Below, one piece after another: positions 1 to 16,377 of a stretch of 17,359 bases of DNA. The notes under the pieces are model-generated. The model did no database searches. It was not told the DNA's origin and worked only from the letters and a program-made list of their open reading frames with translations. Origin of the DNA: an uncultured Eubacteriales bacterium (GTDB taxonomy: Bacteria > Bacillota > Clostridia > TANB77 > RGIG9151). The stretch spans positions 1 to 17,359 of the forward strand of contig CAZXFU010000005.1 of the NCBI GenBank assembly GCA_964640345.1, given 5' to 3'. Position 1 is the first letter of the stretch. Each line of letters begins with the position of its first letter. The position numbers were made by a program, and so were the translations under genes.

Positions 1-46
1 CAACCGGTTATGAGCCGGTAGCTCTAACCAACTGAGCTAAAGGCCC
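1..46 (-). tRNA. 5' portion of a tRNA with anticodon CAT (tRNA-Met, or lysidine-type tRNA-Ile2). The 3' part lies beyond the left edge of the window.
   Basis: The reverse complement of 1-46 reads GGGCCTT-TA-GCTC-AGTTGGTTA-GAGC-T-ACCGG-CTCATAA-CCGGT-TG. That gives a 7-nt acceptor arm, a canonical D-arm, and a 5-bp anticodon stem with a 7-nt loop CT-CAT-AA. Confidence 0.85.
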
Positions 47-2925: not shown

Positions 2926-3043
2926 CATAAAAGCAATACATAAGTTAAAAACATTACTACTTAGAGCTAATTAAAAAAAATAATAAATTTGCCGATAAAA
3001 AAATATGAAAAAGGCATAGAGGTTACATAATTTCATAAAAATG

Positions 3044-3072
3044 TTGACTTTATTTGCTAAATGTAGGATAAT
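3044..3072 (+). promoter_or_regulatory. Candidate sigma-A promoter for the coupling-protein / topB / tex / dnaI gene string
   Basis: TTGACT (3044-3049), an exact 17-nt spacer, then GATAAT (3067-3072), about 25-40 nt upstream of the first possible start codons. Confidence 0.55.
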
Positions 3073-3095
3073 TTATATGTTGGTATTTGTAATTA

Positions 3096-5600
3096 ATGAA
3101 AGGTGGAATAACCTTGTTTAAGAATATAAAAAATTGGTGGAGCGGAATAAAGAAAAAATACAACAAGCCTAGTTTCTTAACAAAACTTTTTTACGGGATG
3201 TCAATACTTGTTGTTTTAAATAGGATAATATCATTGATAATAGCGTTATCCGGGAAATGTATAGAGCTTACTTCGAAAGAGTTGTATCGTTCGTTGTTTT
3301 GGACGGCAGAGGAGTATACTCTTGCTATATTATTACCATTAGCCGGTTTTGCATATTTTTGCTCTTCTGAGTATGTAGCCAATACAGAAAATAAGGCTAA
3401 GGGTTATTTTATTACATACGGATTTATTGCGGCGATTGCCTTTGTGATGCTTGCACAGTGGTCAAACGAATTTATAATATTTTTAGCAAGTTATTATAAA
3501 AATGGTGAAATATTGAGAATAGGTCTTACCGAAGCACCGGATATTTTTAAGGAAGCGTTAGGATATGCAAGTTTATATATTCCTGTTTGTGCAATTGCAC
3601 TTACTCCGACGTCTGTTGCTTCATTGTTTGATGATAGTAATCCTATAAATAAATTAAAATCTCTTTCACTTATGCCTTCTAAACCCGGTACGAACGGTGT
3701 TGGAGAATGGGCTGCCGACGTTAGACTTTGCGATGATTTAAAAACCGGTGCACCTGTAATTATTTCTGAACCAAGGCGTATGGAAACTGTTTTAATACAG
3801 GGTGCGACAGGTACAGGTAAAACTTCAACGTTATTATTGCCTATGTGTGCAAGTGATTTAGAGAAGAAATATTTTTTTAGAGAAAAAGCAAAGGAATTAG
3901 CTTATAAAGCTTTGACAAGTGGCTGTGCATATATAAATGCACCTTATGATAACGAAACGTTAAACAAGTGTTTTACTCTGAATTTCTTACGCCCTATTTA
4001 CGGTAGAGAAAAGGATTTTATGGAAATTTTAAAACCGATGATAAAGTGCGAGGATAAAGAAAACAAAGAATTGGTTTTTAGGGATTTAGGTATTACGGTT
4101 TTGGAGCCTGACGGTAATTTTATTGACGATTTTAGATTAATTGCGGACAACTTAGGGATAATGGTTTACAAAATCGACCCACTTGATCCGAATTCTTTTG
4201 GCATAAATCCGTTTATAAATAAAAGCCCGGCAAAAGTTGCAAGTATTATTTCAACGGTTTTAAAAGGAATGTATGAAAGTGAAAATCCTGATTCTAGTAA
4301 CCTTTTCTTTGGCCAGGTTACTCAACAGGCATTAGAAAATCTTGCAATTTTATTAAAAGTTATGTATCCGAAGCTACATGATAACCAGATTCCCACACTT
4401 GAAGATATGCTTGAATGTTTATATAATTATAATCTTGTTGAGGATATGTGTGAGGAGTTAAAACGTGATCCTGTTTTATGTGAGAAGCATGCAATTTTAA
4501 TAAAATACTTTGAAAAGAATTTCTATAATCCGCCGCTTGATATTAACGGTAGACCTGTACTTGGTTCTATCGGAAGTAACAGAAAAGAAACAGAAACGTT
4601 CTTATATGGGGCCACGACTCAACTTGATAACCTAATAAGGAATAAGATGGTAAAGCGAATCTTATGCAGTAGGGATAACAATATCGACCTAGATAAGGTA
4701 TTGGCAGAAGGCGGTTGTGTTTCTGTTTGTACAAGACGTGGAGAGATTGGCGGACTTCTTGCTAAGCCGTTTGGTATGTTTTATATTCTTACAATGCAAG
4801 ATGCAGTCTTAAGAAGACCGGGAGATGAAAATACCAGAATACCTCATTTCTTATATATAGATGAGTTCCCTGATTTTGTAAATAAAGAAACAGAGACTTG
4901 TTTTACTTTGTTTAGAAAATATCGTTGCGGAATGACTATTGCAATTCAGAACTTATCTCAGCTTGAAAGAAATAAGTCAATGAAGTTTTATAAGCAGGTT
5001 GTTACGTCGAACAGTAAAACTGTTGCTGTTTTTGGCGATACCAATAAAGAAGACAGTGAATATTGGAGTAAAGCTTTTGGCAGACATGAGTATTGGGATA
5101 TCGGAAGCGGATGGAGTAGACCACCTTTATTTAATGTTAAGAATGAATCCGAGAATGCTGAAGGTATAAGCATGAAAGTATCGTTTACAGAAAATATAAA
5201 ACCTTTCCATTTAGCCGAGATGCCGTTTAGAACAGTATATTATAAGACAAGAGATGCTAAAGGAAGCGTTGCTTTTGGTAAAGGTACAACTGATTTTATA
5301 GATAAAAGATTTTTAAAGAAGTATGAGCAAAAAGAATATGACTTTAGAATGTTTGTAAATTACAATCCGGAAGATACTACATTAAGAGAAACACCTATAG
5401 TAAAAGAAGTCGCTTCAGGCGATATCGAAACAAACGAAGTTTTAGACGGTACAAATTCTATAGAAATTGCAAAGCAAATAGAAGAAGAAAGAAAAGAATT
5501 ATTTAAGCTTACACAGGCAAATCCGGAAATTGCTAATATTATTATTGATGAACCGGAAGTTGTTGATGACGTAAAGATAGAAATAGAGAAAAATATATAA
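3096..5600 (+). CDS. Membrane-anchored type IV coupling protein-like ATPase (VirD4/TraG/TraD family), paralog 1
   Basis: 834-aa ORF. Motifs are Walker A LIQGATGTGKTS (nt 3801-3827), T4CP-type LEPDG and INPF motifs, Walker B HFLYIDEFPDF (around nt 4851), and the TraG-D_C-like AIQNLSQL...VFGDTN. About 4 hydrophobic helices lie in the first ~190 aa. The ATG at 3096 has no RBS. An in-frame TTG at 3114 is preceded by AAAGGTGGA (3099-3107) and may be the real start. Confidence 0.75.
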   Translation: MKGGITLFKNIKNWWSGIKKKYNKPSFLTKLFYGMSILVVLNRIISLIIALSGKCIELTSKELYRSLFWTAEEYTLAILLPLAGFAYFCSSEYVANTENKAKGYFITYGFIAAIAFVMLAQWSNEFIIFLASYYKNGEILRIGLTEAPDIFKEALGYASLYIPVCAIALTPTSVASLFDDSNPINKLKSLSLMPSKPGTNGVGEWAADVRLCDDLKTGAPVIISEPRRMETVLIQGATGTGKTSTLLLPMCASDLEKKYFFREKAKELAYKALTSGCAYINAPYDNETLNKCFTLNFLRPIYGREKDFMEILKPMIKCEDKENKELVFRDLGITVLEPDGNFIDDFRLIADNLGIMVYKIDPLDPNSFGINPFINKSPAKVASIISTVLKGMYESENPDSSNLFFGQVTQQALENLAILLKVMYPKLHDNQIPTLEDMLECLYNYNLVEDMCEELKRDPVLCEKHAILIKYFEKNFYNPPLDINGRPVLGSIGSNRKETETFLYGATTQLDNLIRNKMVKRILCSRDNNIDLDKVLAEGGCVSVCTRRGEIGGLLAKPFGMFYILTMQDAVLRRPGDENTRIPHFLYIDEFPDFVNKETETCFTLFRKYRCGMTIAIQNLSQLERNKSMKFYKQVVTSNSKTVAVFGDTNKEDSEYWSKAFGRHEYWDIGSGWSRPPLFNVKNESENAEGISMKVSFTENIKPFHLAEMPFRTVYYKTRDAKGSVAFGKGTTDFIDKRFLKKYEQKEYDFRMFVNYNPEDTTLRETPIVKEVASGDIETNEVLDGTNSIEIAKQIEEERKELFKLTQANPEIANIIIDEPEVVDDVKIEIEKNI

Positions 5601-5614
5601 TTGGCGGTGAAGAA

Positions 5615-8002
5615 ATGTCGGAAATTATTAATAAAACAAGAAAGTTAATGAGAAATGAAGATTTAATGTGCAAACTTTTTTATGGCATGACTACATTAGT
5701 AATATTAAATAGACTTTTATCATTTTTGATAATGATTTTCTTCTCTGATTACAGCCAAATTTCTTCATCTATGGGGCATTCAAATGTTTTAGCATCATTA
5801 TTTTCTTTAGTAACAAAGTCGCCTGTAAAGCAGTTTGAAATGTGGAATTCTTTTGAATATACAATGGCTATTTTACTACCGTTAGCAGGATATGCGTTTT
5901 TCTGTTCGTCAAGCTATGCAAAAAATCGTACTAGGAAAATAAAGATGTTTTCTGTTACGATGATGTTGGTTTCTATAATCGGATCATTTATGTTAGCAGA
6001 ATGGTCGAATTCTTTGGTTTGTTATATTATTTCATTTGCAGGAGAAGAAAGAATTAAAGAGGCTTGGTCACTTGCACCGGATAAGATGATTGCAGCGATT
6101 CGTGCTGCTACGATTTATTTACCTGTGCAGGCTATGTGTTTAACAAGTGGAATGATTTCTATAGCAGTATATGGACCGGATTCGGAAGATCAGATTATAA
6201 ATTTGAAAATTTTAGATTTTACGCCAAACGCTATGCCAACAGGTAAATATACTTGTGAAGTTACTGTTTGTCGTGATTCTGGTACCGGCGAGTGGATAAC
6301 AATACCTGAAAATAGACGAATGGAAGCAACGTTAATTCAAGGTGCGACCGGTACAGGTAAAACGTCTATGTTATTATTACCGATGTGTGCTAGCGATTTA
6401 GAAAAGAAATTTTTCTTTCAGGAAGAGTTAAAGAAGTTAGCAATTGAAGCGTTAGATAAAGGATATGCTTATATTGATGCACCATTTTCAAGTGAAGAAC
6501 TTAATGAGCATTTTTCGATGGAATATATCAAACCTCGTCAAAATATGGAAAAGGAGTTTTTGGGTGTATTTAAAAATATGACTAGATATGTCGGAACAAT
6601 GGACGACACAAGAATTTATAAAAACCTTGGCGTTACGGTAGTTGAGCCTGACGGAAAGTTTTGCGGTGATTTTCAGGAAGTCGCTAAAAATTACGGAATT
6701 GAGGTAAAGAAGATTGACCCTGAGGCACCGGATACTTATGGTATGAATCCTTTCCAAAATGAAGATCCGGATAAAGCAGCGAGCATTATTGCAACTGTTT
6801 TGCAAGGAATGTATGAAAGTGAAAATCCAGGCGGGAATAACGTGTTTTTTGGGCAGGTTACACAGCAGGCATTAGAGAATTTGGCACTGCTATTAAAAGT
6901 AATGTATCCAAGGCTTCATGACGGTGAATTGCCTACGCTTGAGGATATGTTAAAGATGATGTATGACTACAACATCGTAGAAAAAATGTGTGAGGAAATG
7001 AAGAAAATTCCGGAGCTTGCAGAAGAGTATAGAATTTTAATTAAATATTTTGAAAAGAATTTCTATAATCCGCCGTACGATTTAAATGGTCGTCCGATTC
7101 CGGGAACTTTCGGTAGCGGAAGAAAAGAAACAGAGAAATTCTTATATGGTGCTGCAACTCAATTAGACAACTTAATGAGGCATGAAAAGGTTAAAGAGAT
7201 TTTATGTTCTAGGGATAGAAATTTGGACTTCGATAAGGTTTTATCTGAAGGGCAATGTGTTTCGGTTTGCACAAGACGTGGTGAACTTGGTGCATTACTT
7301 TCAAAGCCTCTTGGAATGTTCTTTATATTGTCTATGCAAGATGCTGTTTTAAGAAGACCGGGTAATGAAAAGACGAGAATACCACATTTCTTATATATAG
7401 ATGAATTCCCGGATTTTGTAAACAGTGAAACAGAAACATGCTTTACATTGTTTAGAAAGTATCGTTGCGGCATGATCGTTGCAATTCAGAACTTGTCACA
7501 ACTTGCAAGAACCGAATCTATGAAATATTATAAACAAGTTGTTGTTTCCAACTCGAGAACTCATTTGGTTTTCGGTAATACGAATGTTGAAGATAGTGAT
7601 TACTGGTCCGGAGTTTTCGGAAGACGTGAAGTTATGAACTTAAGTTATAAGCTGGAAACTGCTCCACTTAGCCAGGTAAAGAGTGATTCGACTGGTATCA
7701 AAGCTGATAGTATGAATGGCGTTATGGATTATACGGATAATATAAAGCCTCATGTACTTAACCAGTTAGCTTTTAAAGCTTTATTTTATAATACACGTGA
7801 TGCAAAAGGAAATAGGAAAAGAGGAAAAGCAAAAGTTGATTTCTTAAATGCTCGTCACAAAAAGATGCATGAAGGAGCAAAATATGATTTTTCAAAGTAT
7901 TTATCATATCGTCGTACTTCGCTTAATGACGGCTATTGGAGTGACAGCATTTCTGAGCAGGAATACAGAGAAAGTAGAATTTTAGACGGAGAAAAAAATT
8001 AG
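5615..8002 (+). CDS. Membrane-anchored type IV coupling protein-like ATPase (VirD4/TraG/TraD family), paralog 2
   Basis: 795-aa ORF that begins 14 nt after paralog 1, with RBS GGTGAAG. It carries the same motif set: LIQGATGTGKTS (nt 6341-6367), VEPDG, MNPF, HFLYIDEFPDF, AIQNLSQL and VFGNTN. It aligns with paralog 1 over the whole length, including the N-terminal membrane domain (KLFYGM..LV.LNR, EYT.AILLPLAG.A.FCSS, A.WSN). Confidence 0.75.
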   Translation: MSEIINKTRKLMRNEDLMCKLFYGMTTLVILNRLLSFLIMIFFSDYSQISSSMGHSNVLASLFSLVTKSPVKQFEMWNSFEYTMAILLPLAGYAFFCSSSYAKNRTRKIKMFSVTMMLVSIIGSFMLAEWSNSLVCYIISFAGEERIKEAWSLAPDKMIAAIRAATIYLPVQAMCLTSGMISIAVYGPDSEDQIINLKILDFTPNAMPTGKYTCEVTVCRDSGTGEWITIPENRRMEATLIQGATGTGKTSMLLLPMCASDLEKKFFFQEELKKLAIEALDKGYAYIDAPFSSEELNEHFSMEYIKPRQNMEKEFLGVFKNMTRYVGTMDDTRIYKNLGVTVVEPDGKFCGDFQEVAKNYGIEVKKIDPEAPDTYGMNPFQNEDPDKAASIIATVLQGMYESENPGGNNVFFGQVTQQALENLALLLKVMYPRLHDGELPTLEDMLKMMYDYNIVEKMCEEMKKIPELAEEYRILIKYFEKNFYNPPYDLNGRPIPGTFGSGRKETEKFLYGAATQLDNLMRHEKVKEILCSRDRNLDFDKVLSEGQCVSVCTRRGELGALLSKPLGMFFILSMQDAVLRRPGNEKTRIPHFLYIDEFPDFVNSETETCFTLFRKYRCGMIVAIQNLSQLARTESMKYYKQVVVSNSRTHLVFGNTNVEDSDYWSGVFGRREVMNLSYKLETAPLSQVKSDSTGIKADSMNGVMDYTDNIKPHVLNQLAFKALFYNTRDAKGNRKRGKAKVDFLNARHKKMHEGAKYDFSKYLSYRRTSLNDGYWSDSISEQEYRESRILDGEKN

Positions 8003-8006
8003 AGAT

Positions 8007-9944
8007 ATGGGAAAAAGTTTGTTTATAGCTGAAAAACCAAGTGTTGCGAAAGAGTTTGCCAAGATTTTAAAGGTAAACTCTTCTTCGCGTGATGGGTATA
8101 TTGAGAATGAAAATTATGTTATTACATGGTGTGTTGGTCATCTTGTTACTATGAGCTATCCGGAAGTGTATGACGAGAATTTAAAAAAGTGGTCACTTAG
8201 CACTTTACCTTTTTTGCCGGAGAATTATAAGTACGAGGTTATATCCTCTGTTGAAAAGCAGTTTAATATAGTAAAAGGATTACTTACAAGAGATGATGTT
8301 GAAACGATATATGTGTGTACCGACTCCGGGCGTGAGGGAGAATATATTTATAGGTTAGTAGATTCTATGGCTCACGTTGAAGGTAAGAATAAGAAAAGAG
8401 TTTGGATAGATTCACAGACTGAAGAAGAGATATTAAGAGGAATTCGTGAGGCAAAGAATTTAAATGAGTATGATGCTTTGGCGGATGCTGCGTATTTAAG
8501 AGCTAAAGAGGACTATTTGATAGGTATAAATTTCTCAAGGCTTCTTAGTTTACTTTATTCACGTTCCGTCAGTGTCTTTAGTAAGGAAGAACGTGTTGTT
8601 ATCGCTATTGGTCGTGTTATGACATGTGTTTTGGGAATGGTTGTAGATCGTGAACGAGAGATTAGAAATTTTGTTAAGACAAACTTTTATAGGTTAGTCT
8701 GCAATTTAGAGGGAAATTGTTCGGGGGAATGGAAAGCTATAGAGAATACCAAGTTTTACAATTCTCCGCTTTTATATAATGAAACAGGTTTTAAGAAAAA
8801 GGAAGATGCTCAAAACCTTGCAAATGTTTTAAGTGAGAATGAAACAGCAGTTGTTGAAGAGATAAAGAAAAAACAGCAAAAGGAAAATGCACCTTTACTT
8901 TTTAATTTGGCAGAGCTTCAAAACGAATGCTCAAAGCGTTTTAAGATTGCACCTGATGAGACTTTGGCTGTTGTTCAGACGTTATATGAAAAGAAGCTTG
9001 TTACATATCCAAGAACTGATGCAAGGGTTCTTTCTACGGCTATTGCTAAGGAGATAAAGAAGAATTTAAACGGGATTGCAACAAGGTGCTTAGACGAGAA
9101 TGTAAAGAAATTTGCAATGAATATTGCTGAGAGAAAGTATAATATTGATTTGGTAAAGTCAAAGTATGTTGATGATTCTAAAATTACAGATCACTATGCG
9201 ATTATTCCGACCGGTCAGGGATATGAAAATTATAATTCGTTAAAAGAACTTGAAAAGGCAATATATAATGTGATTTCCCTTAGATTTTTAGCGGTTTTTT
9301 ATCCGCCTGCTGTTTTTAACAGAATTTCGCTTACTGTAAAAATCGGTGAAGAGTATTTTTTTGCCAGTGCAAAAACTTGTAAGGATATTGGGTATTTAGA
9401 AGTGCTAAAAAGCGGTAAAGATGCAGATAGTGATGAGAGTGCGTTAAGTGGCTTAAAGAAAGGTCAACAATTAAAGATAAATAATATTGAGGTAAAAGAA
9501 GGAGAAACAAGTCCACCGAGCCGTTATACAACCGGTACAATGATTTTGGCAATGGAAAATGCCGGAAAGCTTATTGAAGACGAGGAATTAAGGTCACATA
9601 TTAAGGGTGCGGGAATCGGAACGAGTGCAACCAGGGCTGAAATTATAAAGAAGCTTGAAAGAAATTCATATATTATTTGTAATTCTAAAACTCAGGTAAT
9701 AACGCCAAGTTTTAAAGGCGAGTTAATATATGAGACTGTAAAAGATGCTATGCCGGATATGCTAAACCCTGAACTTACGGCAAGTTGGGAAAAAGGGCTT
9801 ACAATGGTGGCAAATAAAGAGATAGAAGCAAAAGTTTTTATGGATAAATTAGAGGCGTATATACGAAATAAGACTAAGAGAGCAATTGAAAAAAAGCCGT
9901 ATATTAATCCGCCAAGAATGTTTAAGGATGTGCCGAAGATATAA
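8007..9944 (+). CDS. topB: DNA topoisomerase III (type IA)
   Basis: 645-aa ORF. The N-terminal Toprim reads LFIAEKPSVAKEFAKIL with the catalytic Glu. The Firmicute TopB-style motif is CTDSGREGE. The active-site Tyr motif is LVTYPRTDARVL (around nt 9000-9030). It starts 4 nt after the upstream stop. Confidence 0.9.
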   Translation: MGKSLFIAEKPSVAKEFAKILKVNSSSRDGYIENENYVITWCVGHLVTMSYPEVYDENLKKWSLSTLPFLPENYKYEVISSVEKQFNIVKGLLTRDDVETIYVCTDSGREGEYIYRLVDSMAHVEGKNKKRVWIDSQTEEEILRGIREAKNLNEYDALADAAYLRAKEDYLIGINFSRLLSLLYSRSVSVFSKEERVVIAIGRVMTCVLGMVVDREREIRNFVKTNFYRLVCNLEGNCSGEWKAIENTKFYNSPLLYNETGFKKKEDAQNLANVLSENETAVVEEIKKKQQKENAPLLFNLAELQNECSKRFKIAPDETLAVVQTLYEKKLVTYPRTDARVLSTAIAKEIKKNLNGIATRCLDENVKKFAMNIAERKYNIDLVKSKYVDDSKITDHYAIIPTGQGYENYNSLKELEKAIYNVISLRFLAVFYPPAVFNRISLTVKIGEEYFFASAKTCKDIGYLEVLKSGKDADSDESALSGLKKGQQLKINNIEVKEGETSPPSRYTTGTMILAMENAGKLIEDEELRSHIKGAGIGTSATRAEIIKKLERNSYIICNSKTQVITPSFKGELIYETVKDAMPDMLNPELTASWEKGLTMVANKEIEAKVFMDKLEAYIRNKTKRAIEKKPYINPPRMFKDVPKI

Positions 9945-10007
9945 ATTATTTGCAAACAATATATAAAAGTGATATTGTGAATGATGTTAGAAAGGAGCAT
10001 TCAGAGT

Positions 10008-10883
10008 ATGATAGATTTTACGAATACAACGGAAGAACTTAATAATTATAAAGGCTCTGAGAAGAAAAAAACCTTAAGATATGAGGGTAAAAAATATCTA
10101 GTTAAATTCCCAGATCCGATAAGAGAGAAAAATAAGAATATATCATATATAAATAATGCCTTTTCTGAGTATGTCGGTAGTAATGTGTTTAGAATTTTGG
10201 GATTTGAGACGCAAAATACAATTTTAGGTCAATATGAATACAATGGGAAAAAGAAAATTGTTTGTGCATGTGAGGATTTTACTGATGCTGATAATGTATT
10301 ATATGAATTTGAAAGTTTAGTTTTAAGTGCAAACCCAGATAAAAAAATTGAGACTGAAGTAAGTGATATTATGGAAGTGCTAAAAGAGTGTGCTAATTTA
10401 ATAGATTTTCCGTCAACAGTTCAGAAATTTTGGGATATGTTTATTGTTGATGCACTTATAGGAAACACGGATAGGCATAACGGTAATTGGGGCTTTTTGC
10501 TTAATAAACAAACTGGCGAAACTAGATTTGCACCTATATATGATTGTGGTTCTTGTCTAAATCCTATGATTGATGATGAAGAGCTGCTTAATATAAGTGA
10601 GACAGAATTTAAGAATTTTGCTGTAAATTGTTATTCATGTTTGAAAGAAAATAATAAAAAAATTAATTATATTACATACATAAATAGTATGAAAAATAGT
10701 GAGTGCAATAGTGCTTTGATTAGAATTTATAAGGATATTAAAATTGATGATATTGATAATTTCATAAAAAATATAGAAGGCATGTCTGAAATTAGGAAGA
10801 ATTTTTACATGAGAATTATTAGAAAGAGATACGAGATGTTGAGTCATGTTTATAATAAATTGTGCGAAATGAAGGGAGAATAA
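10008..10883 (+). CDS. Short HipA-like Ser/Thr kinase (HipA_C domain only)
   Basis: The ORF is open from 9981 (300 aa), but the ATG at 10008 follows the RBS AAAGGAG (9991-9997) and is the better start (291 aa). The HipA catalytic motif is LIGNTDRHNGNWGFL (around nt 10461-10493), followed by the APIYDCGS (DxG-like) motif. Confidence 0.75.
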   Translation: MIDFTNTTEELNNYKGSEKKKTLRYEGKKYLVKFPDPIREKNKNISYINNAFSEYVGSNVFRILGFETQNTILGQYEYNGKKKIVCACEDFTDADNVLYEFESLVLSANPDKKIETEVSDIMEVLKECANLIDFPSTVQKFWDMFIVDALIGNTDRHNGNWGFLLNKQTGETRFAPIYDCGSCLNPMIDDEELLNISETEFKNFAVNCYSCLKENNKKINYITYINSMKNSECNSALIRIYKDIKIDDIDNFIKNIEGMSEIRKNFYMRIIRKRYEMLSHVYNKLCEMKGE

Positions 10884-10884
10884 T

Positions 10885-13038
10885 ATGGATTTTATACAAG
10901 AACAATTAAAAAATGAGTTTAATTTAAAGGATTTTCAAGTAAAAAATACTGTAGAGTTAATTGATGGCGGAAATACTATTCCTTTTATTGCACGTTATAG
11001 AAAGGAAATGACAGGAGAACTTAGTGACGAGGTTTTAAGAGATTTTTATGAAAGATTACTGTATCTTAGGAAGCGTGAAGAACGCAAAGAAGAGATTATG
11101 CGTTTAATTGACGAACAGGGAAAGATGACAGAAGATTTACAAAAGCAGATTGAAAAAGCTGAGACTATGACTGAGCTTGAGGATTTGTATAGACCATATA
11201 AGCAGAAAAAGAGGACAAGAGCTACCATTGCTAAGGAAAAAGGTTTAGAGCCTCTTGCTGTTATTATAAAGAAGCAGGAAATGATGTCGGGAGATAGAAG
11301 TTTAGTTGCAAGTGAGTTTATAAACGATGAAAAAGGTGTAAAGAGTGCAGAAGATGCAATTTCCGGTGCATTAGATATTATTGCTGAAGAAATTTCAGAT
11401 AATGCGGATTATCGTAAAGAAATAAGAAAGATAACTTTTGAAAACGGCATTTTTACTTCTAAGGGTACGAATCCGGATGAGAAGACAGTATATGATATGT
11501 ATTATGATTTTGCTGAGCCTATTTCAAAGATACCTAGTCATAGGGTTTTGGCTATAAATCGCGGAGAAAAGGAAGGTGCGTTAAAGGCAAAGCTTGAGAT
11601 TGATACTGACGGCATATTAGCTTATCTTGAAAAAGATGTTATAAAAGGAGATAGCATTTTTAAAGATGATTTAAAGTTATGTGTTTTAGATGCGTATAAG
11701 AGGTTAATTGCACCTTCTATTGAGAATGAGCTTAGAAATGATATTACAGAAGTTGCGGATGAGAAGGCTATTAAGGTCTTTGGTGTTAACATCAAAAATT
11801 TACTTTTGCAAGCACCGCTTAAAAATATGACTGTTATGGGGTTTGATCCTGCATATAGGACAGGTTGTAAGATTGCGATTATCGATGAGACCGGTAAGCT
11901 ACTTGCTACTACTACAGTTTATCCTACTATGCCTCAAAATGATGTTGACGGAGCAAAGAGGGAGTTAAAAGCATTAATTAAAAAGTATAATGTTAATATG
12001 ATTGCGATAGGAAACGGAACTGCTTCAAGGGAGTCTGAGCAGTTTGTTGCGGATATGATAAAAGAAATACCGGAAAGCACTTATTATACTATTGTTAGTG
12101 AAGCAGGAGCTTCTGTATATTCTGCATCAAAGCTTGCGACAGAAGAATATCCGGATATAAACGTTTCGCTTCGCGGTGCTATTTCTATTGCAAGGCGTCT
12201 CCAAGATCCGCTTGCCGAGCTTGTTAAGATTGATCCTAAAAGCATTGGTGTAGGTCAGTACCAACATGATGTTAATCAGAAAAAGCTTGATGAGGCGTTA
12301 ACGGGTGTTGTTGAAGATGCGGTTAATAAGGTTGGCGTTAATTTAAATACCGCAACTCCGTCATTACTTAATTATGTTTCAGGTTTAAGCAAGACCGTTG
12401 CTTCTAATATTGTTAAGTACAGAGAGGAAAAAGGTAAGTTTAAAAACAGAAAGGAATTACTTAACGTAAGTAAGTTAGGACCTGCGGCATTTACACAATG
12501 TTCCGGATTTTTAAGGATACCCGGCGGGGATAATCCTTTAGATAATACTTCTGTTCATCCTGAATCTTATGATATTGCAAAGAAGATTTTAGAGAAGATG
12601 GGTTATGATGTTAAGAATTTTGAAAATGTTGATAAGAATGAGATGATTAGAAAAATAAAAGCTATTAACATTAGTGAATTAGCTAGTGAGTTAAATGTCG
12701 GGGTACCTACTGTTACGGATATATTAAATGAACTTCAAAAACCTGGACGTGATCCTAGAGAAGACATGCCGAAACCTATTTTAAGAAGTGATGTTCTAAA
12801 ACTTGAAGATTTAAAAGAAGGTATGGTATTAAAGGGAACTGTAAGAAATGTTATTGATTTTGGAGCGTTTGTGGATATTGGTATAAAAAATGACGGTTTG
12901 GTACATATTTCAGAGATGAGCAATAATTATGTTAAAAATCCTATGGATGTTGTGTCTGTTGGAGATATAGTTGATGTCAGAGTTATAAAAATTGATATGG
13001 ATAAAGGAAAAGTAGGGCTTAGCATGAAAGATTTATAG
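10885..13038 (+). CDS. tex: Tex-like transcription accessory protein (YqgF/RuvX-like, HhH and C-terminal S1 domains)
   Basis: 717-aa ORF with RBS AAGGGAGA. The N-terminus FIARYRKEMTGELSDEVLR is typical of Tex. Other marks are the central GFDPAYRTGCK (YqgF-like) segment, IGVGQYQHDV, and the C-terminal S1 segment GMVLKGTVRNVIDFGAFVDIG...GLVHISE. It starts 1 nt after the HipA-like stop codon. Confidence 0.9.
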   Translation: MDFIQEQLKNEFNLKDFQVKNTVELIDGGNTIPFIARYRKEMTGELSDEVLRDFYERLLYLRKREERKEEIMRLIDEQGKMTEDLQKQIEKAETMTELEDLYRPYKQKKRTRATIAKEKGLEPLAVIIKKQEMMSGDRSLVASEFINDEKGVKSAEDAISGALDIIAEEISDNADYRKEIRKITFENGIFTSKGTNPDEKTVYDMYYDFAEPISKIPSHRVLAINRGEKEGALKAKLEIDTDGILAYLEKDVIKGDSIFKDDLKLCVLDAYKRLIAPSIENELRNDITEVADEKAIKVFGVNIKNLLLQAPLKNMTVMGFDPAYRTGCKIAIIDETGKLLATTTVYPTMPQNDVDGAKRELKALIKKYNVNMIAIGNGTASRESEQFVADMIKEIPESTYYTIVSEAGASVYSASKLATEEYPDINVSLRGAISIARRLQDPLAELVKIDPKSIGVGQYQHDVNQKKLDEALTGVVEDAVNKVGVNLNTATPSLLNYVSGLSKTVASNIVKYREEKGKFKNRKELLNVSKLGPAAFTQCSGFLRIPGGDNPLDNTSVHPESYDIAKKILEKMGYDVKNFENVDKNEMIRKIKAINISELASELNVGVPTVTDILNELQKPGRDPREDMPKPILRSDVLKLEDLKEGMVLKGTVRNVIDFGAFVDIGIKNDGLVHISEMSNNYVKNPMDVVSVGDIVDVRVIKIDMDKGKVGLSMKDL

Positions 13039-13053
13039 GAACGGAGAATTAAT

Positions 13054-14019
13054 ATGAAGATAGAGAGAAACGCATCACTGCTTTTGGGAGATACGGCAGT
13101 TTCAGATATATTTATTAATGATTATTTGATGGCGGCTGAAGGCGATTTTGTTAAGGTTTATTTGTATTGCCTTTTCTTATCTAAGCATAATAAAGATATT
13201 ACGCTACTTGATTTATCTAAAAAGACAGGTTTGCAACTAGAAAGAGTTAAAGCGGCAGTTGAGTATTTTAACAAATCCGGCTTGTCTGTTGCAACAGAGC
13301 GTGGCATTATATTATGTGATTTGAAGGAAAAAGAGATAAATAGGTTATATACGCCAAAGCTTTCTACTTCTCCGGAAGATGCTGTAGATAAGCTTAATAG
13401 AAATAGAAAGCGCTCTTCTGTTATAAATGCGATAAATAATACTTTTTTTCAAGGAATTATGAGTCCTGCATGGTATAATGACATTGCAACTATTTTTGAT
13501 AAGTATAATTTTGAAGAAGAGGTTGTTTTTTCGTTGTTTAATTATTGCTATGATAAAAGAGCTTTGCACAAGAATTATTTGTTTGCGGTAGCGGAGGCAT
13601 GGGCACTTAATAAGATTCACAATACCGGTGATTTAGATGCTTATTATCAAAAATATGAAAAGTCTAATAAACTCAAAAAAACCGTTAGTAAGAAGCTTGG
13701 GATTACAAGAAAGCTTACTGAGTATGAGGAAGCGTATGTAGATAAATGGTGTATGGAATTTGGTTATGATATTGATGTTATTGAAATTGCACTAAAGAAA
13801 ACTACTTCTAAGACCAACCCAAGTTTTGAGTATATAAACAAGATTATTTGCTCATGGGCAGAAAAAGGTCTTAAGTCAAAAGAACAAGTTTCAGAATTTT
13901 TAGAGCAAACTAAGACTAAGAACGAGTTTATAAAGAATAATAAAAATGTGGTAAGTAATGCTTATGTTAATCCTGAGCAGAAAGAATTTAATGATTTGGA
14001 TCGTTTTTATGCAAATTAA
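13054..14019 (+). CDS. DnaD-domain replication initiation / membrane attachment protein (Firmicute DnaB-like: winged-helix N-domain plus two DnaB_2/DDBH2 repeats)
   Basis: 321-aa ORF with RBS ACGGAGA. Two repeats match the pattern hydrophobic-x-Y..K..W...G: FEEEVVFSLFNYCYDK...YLFAVAEAWALNKIHNTGDL and DIDVIEIALKKT...FEYINKIICSWAEKGLKSKEQV. It sits immediately upstream of a DnaI-like gene, as in the Bacillus dnaB-dnaI operon. Confidence 0.7.
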   Translation: MKIERNASLLLGDTAVSDIFINDYLMAAEGDFVKVYLYCLFLSKHNKDITLLDLSKKTGLQLERVKAAVEYFNKSGLSVATERGIILCDLKEKEINRLYTPKLSTSPEDAVDKLNRNRKRSSVINAINNTFFQGIMSPAWYNDIATIFDKYNFEEEVVFSLFNYCYDKRALHKNYLFAVAEAWALNKIHNTGDLDAYYQKYEKSNKLKKTVSKKLGITRKLTEYEEAYVDKWCMEFGYDIDVIEIALKKTTSKTNPSFEYINKIICSWAEKGLKSKEQVSEFLEQTKTKNEFIKNNKNVVSNAYVNPEQKEFNDLDRFYAN

Positions 14020-14034
14020 TAGTGAGGTGGTTAT

Positions 14035-15051
14035 ATGCAGAGTGTTTACAGGCGTATTCAGCAGGAGTATGAAAAGGATAGGAATTCGGCTTTGGCTGAA
14101 GTGGAAAAGAAGAAAAAGGAGATTTATGAAAAAGAGCCCAGAGTTTTAGAAATTGATGAGAAGATAAAGAAAATCGGGATGGAGATTAGTAAATCTATTA
14201 TTTTTATTGATGATGACACTAAACGTGAAAATGCAGTAAGAGACCTTAATTCGCAAATTGATGAGCTAAAAAATGAAAAAGGTAAATTACTTAGTAGCAT
14301 GGAGATTGACGAAGAGTATTTAGTACCGAATTTTAGATGCAAAATATGTGAAGATACAGGTATTGTAGGCAGTGTGACCGGAGCGAAAAATTGCTCTTGT
14401 TTTAGGCAGAAGCTTATTGATTATACGTATAATCAATCTCAGATATATAATATAGATAAAGAAAATTTTGATGCGTTTGATGAAAGTATTTTTTCTGATA
14501 TGGTTGATGAAAAGGCGTATAACAGTCAAAAATCTCCGCGAGAAAATATTCTCCTTATAAAGGATATTGCCACTAAGTTTGTAGAGGGTTTTGATGATGT
14601 AGATACTAAAAATCTTTTATTTACAGGCGGAACAGGACTCGGAAAGACTTTTTTAAGCAATTGTATTGCAAAAGCTATGTTAGACAAAGGGAAAACAGTT
14701 TTGTATCAAACATCCGGTCGGCTTATGGACTTAGTTATGGACTATCGTAAAGGAGATAGTGAAAATTTTGATGCTTCGCAATATGAGGAACTGTTTAATG
14801 TTGATCTTTTAATTATTGATGACCTTGGAACTGAGAACATGACTGAAGCAAGACGCTCAGAGCTATTTAACATACTAAATACAAGGTTGTTAAATTCTGC
14901 TAAAAAGCATACGAAAACAGTTATTTCCACAAATAAAGATTTAAAAGAGTTGGTTAATTATTATGATCAAAGGATTGTTTCCAGAATTTTGGGAAATTTT
15001 GAGATATGCAGATTTTTCGGTAGAGATTTAAGATTATCTAACAGAAAGTAA
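14035..15051 (+). CDS. dnaI: Primosomal helicase loader DnaI/DnaC-like AAA+ ATPase
   Basis: 338-aa ORF with RBS GAGGTGG. The N-terminal zinc module is CKICEDTG...CSC. Walker A is FTGGTGLGKTFL, Walker B is LLIIDDLGTE, and the sensor region is VISTN. Confidence 0.8.
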   Translation: MQSVYRRIQQEYEKDRNSALAEVEKKKKEIYEKEPRVLEIDEKIKKIGMEISKSIIFIDDDTKRENAVRDLNSQIDELKNEKGKLLSSMEIDEEYLVPNFRCKICEDTGIVGSVTGAKNCSCFRQKLIDYTYNQSQIYNIDKENFDAFDESIFSDMVDEKAYNSQKSPRENILLIKDIATKFVEGFDDVDTKNLLFTGGTGLGKTFLSNCIAKAMLDKGKTVLYQTSGRLMDLVMDYRKGDSENFDASQYEELFNVDLLIIDDLGTENMTEARRSELFNILNTRLLNSAKKHTKTVISTNKDLKELVNYYDQRIVSRILGNFEICRFFGRDLRLSNRK

Positions 15052-15120
15052 CAAAAGATGTACGATAATAATATTATGTTAATGCAGGGTAAGGATTTTT
15101 GTTTACAAGGGCATTGACTA

Positions 15121-15178
15121 AAAAGCTATTGCTAAAATGTTGTCGGGTTGCCCGTTTTAGTAATAGCTTTTATCTTTA
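15121..15178 (+). terminator. Long AT-rich hairpin with a T-rich tail; likely the terminator of the upstream gene string
   Basis: The 17-nt arms AAAAGCTATTGCTAAAA (15121-15137) and TTTTAGTAATAGCTTTT (15155-15171) pair with one G-T wobble. They enclose an inner CGGG-TTG-CCCG hairpin (15144-15154). The structure is followed by ATCTTT. Confidence 0.45.
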
Positions 15179-15210
15179 CTCTAAATTAAGTAGGTTGAAG
15201 GGTGAAAATA

Positions 15211-16377
15211 ATGATTATTGTACAAAAATATGGAGGAAGTTCTGTAGCAGATAATAAAAAACTATATATGGTAGCAGAAAAAATAAAAAGGACTGTCCGG
15301 GAAGGAGCTAGCGTTGTCGTTGTTGTTTCCGCACAAGGGAAAACCACAGATGTACTTATTGACAAGGCACATTCTATAGAAAAAGAATGTTCTAAGCGTG
15401 AGCTTGATGTACTTTTAGCTACAGGAGAACAACAGTCTATGGCACTTCTTGCAATGACACTTAATAAAATTGGTGTGCCTGCGGTTTCACTTACCGGTGA
15501 ACAAGCAGGGATTTATACTATTGGAAGCCATACAAACGCCAGAATAGAAGATATTCGCCCTTTTAGAATTTTTAACGAATTGGAAAAGGGGAATGTAGTT
15601 GTAGTTGCAGGCTTTCAGGGCGTAGATGAGGAAAATGATATAAATACTTTAGGAAGAGGGGGCTCTGATACGACCGCGATTGCCTTAGCACATGCACTTT
15701 TAGCTGAAAGATGTGACATATATAGCGATGTTGACGGAATATATACGGCAGATCCAAGGATTGTAAAAAATGCTATGAGATTAGATGAAATAAGTTATGA
15801 TACTATGTTGGAGTTGGCAAGTTTAGGTGCTAAAGTGCTTAATAGCAGGGCTGTTGAACTTGCAAAGAAGTACGAGGTTAATCTTACTTCTGGTGGAAGT
15901 TTTTGTGACAGGGAGGGAACTAAAATAGTTAGAAATGGATTAGAAAGTGCTAATGTTACCGGCTTTACTGCAGATAGGGGAGTGGCAATAGTTACTATTT
16001 TTAATGTAGAAAATGAATACGATATTTTTTCTAAGCTTTTAGACAGACAAATCCAACTTGATGTTATTGGTCAAAGCATAGGATTAAAAGAGGTTTCTTT
16101 TACTGTTAAATCAGATAGTATCGAAACCGTAAGAGAGTGTATCGGAGACAAATATGATATCAATATTTGTGACAATTGCGGTAAAGTTTCAGCAGTTGGA
16201 AGCGGAATGCTAAATAAACCTGAAATGGCAAAATGTATATATGAGGCACTTTATGAAAATAATATCCCGATTAAGCTTATAAGCAGTTCGGAAATAAAGT
16301 TTTCCGTTATTGTTGATGTCGAATATGTGGATACTGCGTTGAATGCCATGCATAATAGGATTTTTAATTTGTCCTAA
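15211..16377 (+). CDS. Aspartate kinase (monofunctional, with C-terminal ACT domains)
   Basis: The ORF is open from the GTG at 15202, but the ATG at 15211 follows GAAGGGTGA and gives the canonical N-terminus MIIVQKYGGSSV. Other motifs are VVVVSAQG, LGRGGSDTTA and DVDGIYTADPRIV. Confidence 0.9.
   Translation: MIIVQKYGGSSVADNKKLYMVAEKIKRTVREGASVVVVVSAQGKTTDVLIDKAHSIEKECSKRELDVLLATGEQQSMALLAMTLNKIGVPAVSLTGEQAGIYTIGSHTNARIEDIRPFRIFNELEKGNVVVVAGFQGVDEENDINTLGRGGSDTTAIALAHALLAERCDIYSDVDGIYTADPRIVKNAMRLDEISYDTMLELASLGAKVLNSRAVELAKKYEVNLTSGGSFCDREGTKIVRNGLESANVTGFTADRGVAIVTIFNVENEYDIFSKLLDRQIQLDVIGQSIGLKEVSFTVKSDSIETVRECIGDKYDINICDNCGKVSAVGSGMLNKPEMAKCIYEALYENNIPIKLISSSEIKFSVIVDVEYVDTALNAMHNRIFNLS

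Follow-up and report, generated by a model that had tools for sequence, protein, structure and literature searches.

The stretch of DNA analysed here (the window), which comprises the 17,359 nucleotides (nt) at positions 1 to 17,359 of contig CAZXFU010000005.1 of an uncultured Eubacteriales bacterium, carries on its + strand an array of seven closely packed genes: T4A and T4B, encoding two paralogous ATPases that resemble type IV coupling proteins (T4CPs), the gene for TopB, a Ser/Thr kinase gene, tex, and the genes for a DnaD-domain protein (dnaD) and a DnaC/DnaI-like helicase loader (dnaI) (Table 1). The first-pass annotation, made from the letters of the window, had read these genes as one unit in which the coupling-protein pair, TopB and the kinase are linked to core replication and transcription functions. 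The array as first described proved accurate and is real. Judged against related genomes, its seven genes are probably two independent chromosomal blocks joined head to tail by a recent rearrangement, the first block being vertically inherited and of mobilisation-module ancestry; the rearrangement would have set T4A-T4B-TopB ahead of the tex block, with a CtkA-family kinase gene in the variable junction.

Table 1. Genes and signals of the seven-gene array and its immediate borders (positions in the window; aa, amino acids)
Feature	Position	Strand	Basis or remark
Conserved 12-nt box GGTTACATAATT	3021-3032	+	11 nt upstream of the T4A -35
T4A promoter, sigma-70 type, TTGACT-17-GATAAT	3044-3072	+	Consensus scan; conserved across relatives
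T4A, T4CP-like P-loop ATPase	3114-5600 (ORF [open reading frame] opens at ATG 3096)	+	Pfam TraG-D_C and T4SS-DNA_transf above cutoff
T4B, paralogue of T4A	5615-8002	+	Pfam
TopB, type IA DNA topoisomerase, probable topoisomerase III, 645 aa	8007-9944	+	Pfam Topoisom_bac (1e-101), Toprim
Candidate internal promoter, TTGCAA (9950-9955), 17 nt, TGnTATTGT extended -10	9950-9978	+	Read from the sequence; TopB-kinase gap
HipA_C-only CtkA-family Ser/Thr kinase, 291 aa	10008-10883 (first in-frame ATG 9981)	+	HipA_C
tex promoter -10 box (TATAAT)	10851-10856	+	Inside the 3' end of the kinase gene; alignment A3
Tex, S1-domain transcription accessory protein	10885-13038	+	Full Tex domain set
DnaD-domain (DnaB_2) replication initiation/helicase-loading protein	13054-14019	+	PF07261, 3.5e-26
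DnaC/DnaI-like AAA+ helicase loader	14035-15051	+	NF005304, 345 bits versus cutoff 215
Long A+T-rich hairpin, then U-rich stretch	15121-15171	+	dG -25.5 kcal/mol, z -4.2
Aspartate kinase (AK)	15202-16377	+	Downstream of the hairpin

The window matched a 20-kb metagenome contig in ENA (ERZ27279218, k141_574383). Pfam and NCBIfam searches of its proteins agreed on the gene identities and upheld the first calls, with the kinase, at first described as HipA-like, refined to the CtkA family. For TopB, topoisomerase III (Topo III) appeared to be the best-matching class, at the trusted threshold, the scores lying just under the cutoffs of both TIGR01056 (515.7 versus 515.75) and NF005829 (573 versus 597). 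The six gaps of the array measured 14, 4, 63, 1, 15 and 15 nt; the TopB-kinase gap would be 36 nt with a start at the first in-frame ATG of the kinase gene, and the 63-nt value follows from the ATG at 10008, which is backed by a ribosome-binding site (RBS). In a G+C-based scan no terminator-like site was found in any internal junction of the array. The same scan missed the hairpin downstream of dnaI, which was matched by none of 200 shuffles and is likely, as had been proposed, the terminator of the array. Rfam searches gave neither a riboswitch nor an attenuator in the array or upstream of the aspartate kinase gene.

To place the array among its relatives, 80 loci from GTDB species representatives were collected with a T4CP-like protein profile, and further contigs by exact-protein look-up; 10 kb on either side was examined for each locus. 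The order T4A-T4B-TopB-kinase-tex recurred in L093 (T4B 83% identical to that of the window), and L090 (78%) had T4A-T4B-TopB-Wzy_C-tex-dnaD with gaps of 84 to 106 nt. In six other loci T4A-T4B was present without tex downstream. The pair and TopB were followed by a gene for an SLH protein and a two-component system in L092 (77%) and by PGA_cap and, further on, proS in L082 (77%); L084 (66%) had TopB-truB-dgkA-T4A-T4B and then yunB, L086 (56%) had htrA, T4A-T4B and then lysC-prfB-secA on the other strand, and in L004 (69%) and L009 (55%) the pair stood with no TopB within 10 kb. Conversely, the order tex, dnaD, dnaI and AK was found behind other upstream genes in three loci: L101 and L102 (Tex 90% identical) had a VWA gene, tex, a gene for an HD hydrolase and then dnaD-dnaI-AK, with groES/EL and murD further upstream in L102, and L103 (Tex 78%) had pilB/pilT-like genes ahead of tex, with dnaD-dnaI-AK downstream. 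L085 and L103 come from one metagenome-assembled genome (MAG; GCA_017934955.1), in which the blocks occupy separate contigs. They were adjacent only in the immediate sublineage of the window. Since equally close relatives carry either block alone, linkage of the T4CP pair to tex-dnaD-dnaI is not conserved, and the functional linkage proposed at first did not survive this synteny check, in which L101, L102 and L103 proved to carry tex-dnaD-dnaI without the upstream module, an outcome that the first-pass annotation had itself listed as refuting. We take T4A-T4B(-TopB) to be inherited as one block, under a conserved promoter of its own, and tex-(slot)-dnaD-dnaI-aspartate kinase to form a separate block with a likewise conserved promoter upstream of tex. 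The apparent link between T4CP and replication/transcription genes would be ordinary genome shuffling in a compact genome.

The T4CP-like ATPases of the first block belong to a family that occurs in at least 80 species of uncultured Clostridia, with 80 loci collected from MAGs, in most of them as a single-copy gene that is divergent from pth and lies beside rplU-rpmA-obg-trpS, RNase G or secA. In a library of 50% identity cluster representatives, 429 proteins matched the family at E <= 1e-30. Pairwise identity within the family tracked that of Pth (Spearman 0.85, 2145 pairs), and the family was the more conserved of the two (median identity 57% versus 48%). T4A and T4B fell into two sister clades whose internal topologies match, pointing to a single duplication and joint inheritance thereafter; the pair would thus stem from one old duplication inside a compact, vertically inherited chromosomal family of uncultured gut Clostridia. 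Two loci of the family, from one project, carry non-Firmicutes labels: L011 (Ignavibacteriales MAG, 315-kb contig) and L013 (Deltaproteobacteria MAG, 128-kb contig) have a set of T4CP-like, Replic_Relax-like, S1 and pth genes that is 48% identical to T4B of the window and groups with the Clostridiales locus L012. These labels could reflect mis-binning, mislabelling or inter-phylum transfer.

The nearest annotated relatives of the family were T4CPs of clostridial plasmids (Clostridium botulinum type E toxin plasmids such as pFWSKR40E1, and Clostridium beijerinckii p1), with 30 to 35% identity over about 80% of the length (E of about 1e-77 to 1e-81). Unlike the chromosomal family, which lies near pth and ribosomal protein genes, those genes are located on large plasmids among transfer-type genes (DUF87/VirB4-like). 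In 17 single-copy loci, a PF13814 (Replic_Relax, MOB_C-class) gene lies convergent after the T4CP-like gene, and 11 of the 12 aligned members matched PF13814, a family listed as the MOB_C (MobC) relaxase class (PMC5357655). A homologue of this gene (28% identity, E 4e-17) was found on the same C. beijerinckii plasmid as one of those T4CPs; no Replic_Relax-like gene was present near the T4CP pair in the clade of the window, and a PDB sequence-profile search with the Replic_Relax-like alignment returned zero matches. In CloDF13, MobC and MobB form a minimal mobilisation module, a MOB_C relaxase with its own coupling protein. The pairing of a T4CP-like gene with a PF13814 gene in the 17 loci resembles that module, with the difference that the family is fixed at one chromosomal site, co-diverges with its host and, in the clade of the window, has its T4CP gene duplicated. 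The family looks like an old mobilisation module domesticated into a fixed chromosomal gene, and would descend from a plasmid-type module of coupling protein and MOB_C-type relaxase-like gene. The earlier suggestion that the coupling-protein genes are ultimately derived from conjugation is in keeping with their plasmid relatives. As a separate observation, the 314-aa Replic_Relax gene is accompanied by a 171-aa gene with two S1 domains, both conserved convergent to the T4CP-like gene (loci include L014, L015, L017, L025-L027, L032, L040, L043-L045, L052, L057 and L072, and also L099, 533-1363). The C. beijerinckii plasmid homologue also adjoins an S1-domain gene; a link through these S1 genes was rejected, the two being not detectably related beyond the domain. 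Literature searches found no description of such a T4CP family, including a chromosomal or orphan T4CP with TopB, which, with exact-word matching, is weak evidence of novelty.

Deep ancestry of this kind differs from recent capture. The first-pass annotation had proposed that a conjugation-derived module was captured upstream of tex, and of this proposal the deep ancestry stands and the recent island does not. An integrative conjugative or mobilisable element of T4CP pair, TopB and kinase, newly inserted upstream of tex, would fit the frequent occurrence of a T4CP with a type IA topoisomerase on conjugative elements (4055 of the best 5000 plasmid TopB-match records were typed conjugative), the location of Helicobacter pylori CtkA on the tfs3 integrative and conjugative element (ICE; PMC5536186) and the variable flank upstream of T4A, with its foreign-looking genes (an ORF of 45% G+C in the window and an integrase fragment in L090). 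We nevertheless hold it to be highly improbable. The window contains no integrase, relaxase or VirB4 gene; VirB4, VirB6, VirD2 and MOB genes were absent within 10 kb on either side in the window and in relatives with Pfam-annotated neighbours, as were type IV secretion system (T4SS) genes from every neighbour-annotated locus. A repeat search around the T4A-TopB block found no att-like direct repeats, only repeats between the paralogues. G+C content (about 33% in the window) and GC skew (positive from about 3 kb on) show no break against the flanks, the pair is vertically inherited with congruent A and B trees, co-diverging with its host, and the same T4A promoter stands in different neighbourhoods. 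Compared with a tra operon of the pIP501/pSK41 type, the window has the T4CP-like pair and TopB only, without VirB4, VirB1, VirB6-like genes or a relaxase, and its flanks are housekeeping or accessory genes.

TopB also sides with the chromosome. It lies directly 3' of T4B in the window, L093, L090, L082 and L092, and 1.7 kb upstream of the pair in L084; the remaining neighbourhoods of the family lacked it, except that in L054 a type IA homologue (26% identical) is convergent to the ATPase gene. The best matches of TopB in a plasmid collection were clostridial records of chromid or chromosome size (47 to 55% identity), whereas typical plasmid TopB reached about 35%. TopB is more likely the Topo III of the host, joined to the pair in a single subclade, than a topoisomerase of the tra-operon kind.

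T4A and T4B are 51% identical (alignment A1) and matched Pfam PF02534, PF10412 and PF12696 (T4SS-DNA_transf, TrwB_AAD_bind and TraG-D_C) above the gathering cutoffs. The Walker A (GATGTGKT) and Walker B (DEF) motifs fall in invariant columns of the alignment and are intact in both paralogues. Each protein has three to four hydrophobic 19-mers in residues 20 to 190, and an N-terminal transmembrane anchor is predicted for both. In the AF2 (AlphaFold2) model of T4B (pLDDT 75.5), long helices occupy the N-terminal region, and the best PDB folds retrieved with Foldseek were TrwB (6e-10), Cag-beta and DotL, followed by DndH-C, VirB4 and HerA. A PDB sequence-profile search with the T4CP alignment gave zero matches, and the FtsK_SpoIIIE Pfam family was unmatched by T4A and T4B. 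A match of the ATPase to PHROG 5156 was rejected, as it covers only about 150 residues of the core. T4CPs (TrwB of R388, VirD4, Cag-beta and DotL) were the best structural matches (TM-scores of 0.51 to 0.68, normalised to the target) and have in common with the pair an N-terminal membrane anchor, the Walker A and B motifs and a helical insertion domain. Unlike them, the window proteins are only about 15% identical to the solved structures, with about 800 aa and three to four hydrophobic segments, and are chromosomal, vertically inherited tandem paralogues. The paralogues differ at their ends. T4A retains the acidic C-terminal motif of the family, DDVxIEIxK (window 5540-5600), and single-copy members end in an acidic/hydrophobic motif too (DDVxIEIxK or DDFEIIFDD...GGAITExYExPxIK), whereas all T4B orthologues share a tail of their own, YDFxKY...SLNEGYWxDSISxQE (window 7900-8002), from which the acidic motif is absent. 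The differing tails suggest that T4A and T4B divide the work.

We favour for T4A/T4B a role as a membrane translocase of DNA or nucleoprotein, which may serve DNA transfer or chromosome handling. Chromosome processing by the translocase and Topo III had been the other proposal of the first-pass annotation. In a machine devoted to this, T4A, T4B and TopB would take the part of FtsK/SpoIIIE with a topoisomerase during division or sporulation, independently of tex and dnaD. Core-like vertical inheritance with conservation above that of Pth, the predicted polytopic membrane anchor, the adjacency of TopB in one subclade, sporulation genes (SpoIIM and YunB) nearby in relatives and the lack of T4SS genes in the vicinity are all consistent with it. 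As in the pairing of FtsK/SpoIIIE with Topo IV, a gene for a membrane-anchored, hexameric-type DNA motor adjoins one for a decatenating topoisomerase; unlike that pairing, the window has another ATPase family and Topo III instead of Topo IV, and motor and topoisomerase are connected by adjacency only, in one subclade only. The ancestral neighbour of the family is a relaxase-class gene, pointing to single-strand transfer rather than segregation, and TopB is unlinked in most of the family, so that we judge a dedicated chromosome-handling machine to be unlikely.

The promoter of the first block was examined in an alignment of the T4A upstream region from seven genomes. Promoter-like sites occurred in the consensus scan at chance level overall (72 found versus 66 expected), which leaves the scan by itself with little weight. 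In six of seven relatives, however, the -35 and -10 hexamers of T4A were conserved base for base whichever gene lies upstream, and L090 carries a site identical to that of the window. An RBS (GGTGG) and a TTG start codon at 3114 were likewise conserved upstream of T4A (six genomes), which moves the true start of T4A from 3096 to 3114 (828 aa). The box GGTTACATAATT, conserved in these six genomes as well, was found exact, once and only upstream of T4A in ten fetched loci (L001, which is the source contig of the window itself, L002, L003, L082, L083 and L088-L092), and is possibly a regulator binding site or a UP-like element. The first description of the array had given it this single promoter, and the T4A promoter stands as described; there are in addition a candidate in the TopB-kinase gap, scoring below the threshold of the promoter scan, and a second conserved signal, the tex -10. 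This element, TATATAAT, was invariant in six of six aligned genomes, about 28 nt ahead of the tex start codon, and relatives have TTGAAA or TTGTCA as their tex -35. In the window the tex -35 is lost; together with the lack of terminators in the junctions, this makes read-through from the T4A promoter likely, and transcription from that promoter probably continues to the hairpin at 15121-15171. We regard the resulting read-through unit as an incidental by-product of compact gene packing and not as a sign of shared function.

Packing is compact throughout the clade: 81% of adjacent genes lie on one strand, same-strand gaps are <=20 nt in 39% and <=65 nt in 56% of cases, and same-strand runs of 10 to 17 genes are present in related loci. 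A functional super-operon, with co-regulation of the translocase pair, Topo III, the kinase, Tex and the helicase loaders for joint action in chromosome replication, restart, decatenation or segregation, would account for the very short gaps, the one strong promoter, the absence of junction terminators, the degraded tex -35 in the window and the recurrence of the order in L090 and L093. It is strongly weakened by synteny, equally close relatives having the blocks apart, as well as by the conservation of the tex promoter in all relatives, by the variable junction gene and by unrelated genes packed as tightly elsewhere (22 nt from TopB to PGA_cap in L082), and we deem it very unlikely.

Several points nevertheless weigh against two independently inherited blocks with a mobilisation-module ancestry for the first. 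The six gaps of the array are tighter than the clade background; by rough arithmetic, the chance that all are <=65 nt is about 0.56^6, or about 0.03. With the -35 of the tex promoter degraded or lost and its -10 retained, tex-dnaD-dnaI may depend on upstream transcription in this genome more than in relatives. The order T4A-T4B-TopB-...-tex recurs in two relatives (L090 and L093), and given these the joined order has persisted for some time. The neighbourhoods compared were those within 10 kb on either side, all of the genomes are MAGs, and T4SS or relaxase genes may possibly lie elsewhere in them. The mechanism, finally, is wholly inferred: T4A and T4B would assemble into a mixed hexamer that works at the membrane as a motor for DNA or a DNA-protein complex, a partner would be brought in by the acidic tail of T4A, and the topological by-products would be dealt with by TopB.

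A coupling protein is usually read as the sign of a mobile element, so that a vertically inherited one would lead mobilome annotation of gut MAGs astray. The interest of the locus lies in a T4CP family that behaves like a host gene, with a fixed position, co-divergence with pth, a conserved duplicated pair and no secretion channel nearby; if functional, it would be a non-canonical use of a T4CP motor. A more far-reaching version, possible though doubtful, is that an uncultured lineage of order rank within the gut Clostridia turned a plasmid mobilisation module, made up of a coupling protein with or without a MOB_C-type relaxase, into a core chromosomal function, be it host-controlled DNA transfer or export or a pump acting in division or sporulation, and that in the genus of the window this became a two-subunit motor with Topo III.

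The kinase gene between the two blocks is an accessory gene in a variable junction slot, which in L090 is filled by a Wzy_C gene. In the window and L093 (6147-7013) the kinases are 74% identical, compared with 95% for the flanking TopB and 92% for Tex, and the kinase of the window is as distant from that of L093 as from kinases of unrelated Clostridia (73%); this suggests allelic replacement of the slot by recombination. More than 7000 homologues were found in gut metagenomes, about 70 to 75% identical among the 120 listed, and one homologue (P0180) carries the NCBI name 'CtkA family protein'. Other gut Clostridia carry the family as a lone chromosomal gene beside rpoBC or gdpP. The kinase matched H. 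pylori CtkA (JHP0940; PDB 3AKJ) with E 1e-48 over residues 14 to 278, and the two have in common the catalytic GNxDRHxGNWGF and DCGS motifs and a HipA_C domain without the HipA N-domain. Unlike CtkA, the window kinase is without the C-terminal KRRR signal (discussed in PMC5536186). In H. pylori, the tfs3 ICE has CtkA at one of its ends, with variable carriage, and CtkA needs the T4SS of that element for its pro-inflammatory activity (PMC5536186); to a substrate relationship of the kinase here we give low weight. The toxin reading of the HipA-like kinase was abandoned: a HipA/HipB toxin-antitoxin system is ruled out by a HipA_C domain only, without N-domain and antitoxin, and no small ORF for HipB or HipS was found in the 63-nt gap upstream of the kinase gene, with tex directly downstream.

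The kinase also matched PADLOC PDC-M03A (1e-36), and the ATPases gave matches to Mad8 of the MADS system (2e-8 and 7e-7), which together might indicate an anti-phage defence locus. The Mad8 matches are weak and partial and, with PADLOC hits to DpdF, were rejected as domain-level noise; among the six proteins scanned, no other PDC-M03 component was matched and no partner gene identified, and a literature search on PDC-M03 found nothing relevant. The kinase family stands alone by housekeeping genes elsewhere, and the ATPase family has a fixed core position and is vertically inherited, unlike defence islands. Defence is, on balance, barely plausible.

In the second block, Tex is 78 to 92% identical in L090, L093 and L101-L103, homologues of the DnaD-domain protein are named 'DnaD domain protein', and in relatives the gene for the DnaC/DnaI-like loader always follows that for the DnaD-domain protein. 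As in the dnaB/dnaD-dnaI pair of Bacillus subtilis, the DnaD-domain gene of the window is followed after 15 nt by a gene for a DnaC/DnaI-type AAA+ loader. Unlike in that pair, the loader is of the PRK06835 type, and the place upstream, held by nrdR in B. subtilis, is taken by tex, with an HD-hydrolase gene as an optional addition. The HD-hydrolase gene, YfbR-like, lies between tex and dnaD in L101 (2983-4242) and L102 (8660-9883), with none in the window or L090; the tex-dnaD gap is a second variable slot, inside a housekeeping block.

Upstream of the array, a 469-aa ORF on the - strand (1373-2782; 43 to 45% G+C, compared with about 33% for the window) directly precedes the T4A promoter. Its N-terminus has a nucleotidyltransferase-like motif (HGGLS...SDLDLTVV). 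The ORF had no match in Pfam, NCBIfam, PHROG or PADLOC, and none of the related loci has it; it is probably foreign and of recent acquisition. Further upstream, on the + strand (191-1315), lies a gene of the type I phosphodiesterase/nucleotide pyrophosphatase family with a weak PglZ-like stretch (E 1e-4); apart from the source contig, L029 is the one fetched locus with a homologue of this gene (31% identity). At the edge of the window (1-46, - strand), a partial tRNA, uncalled by ARAGORN, matched Rfam RF00005 with 31.9 bits.

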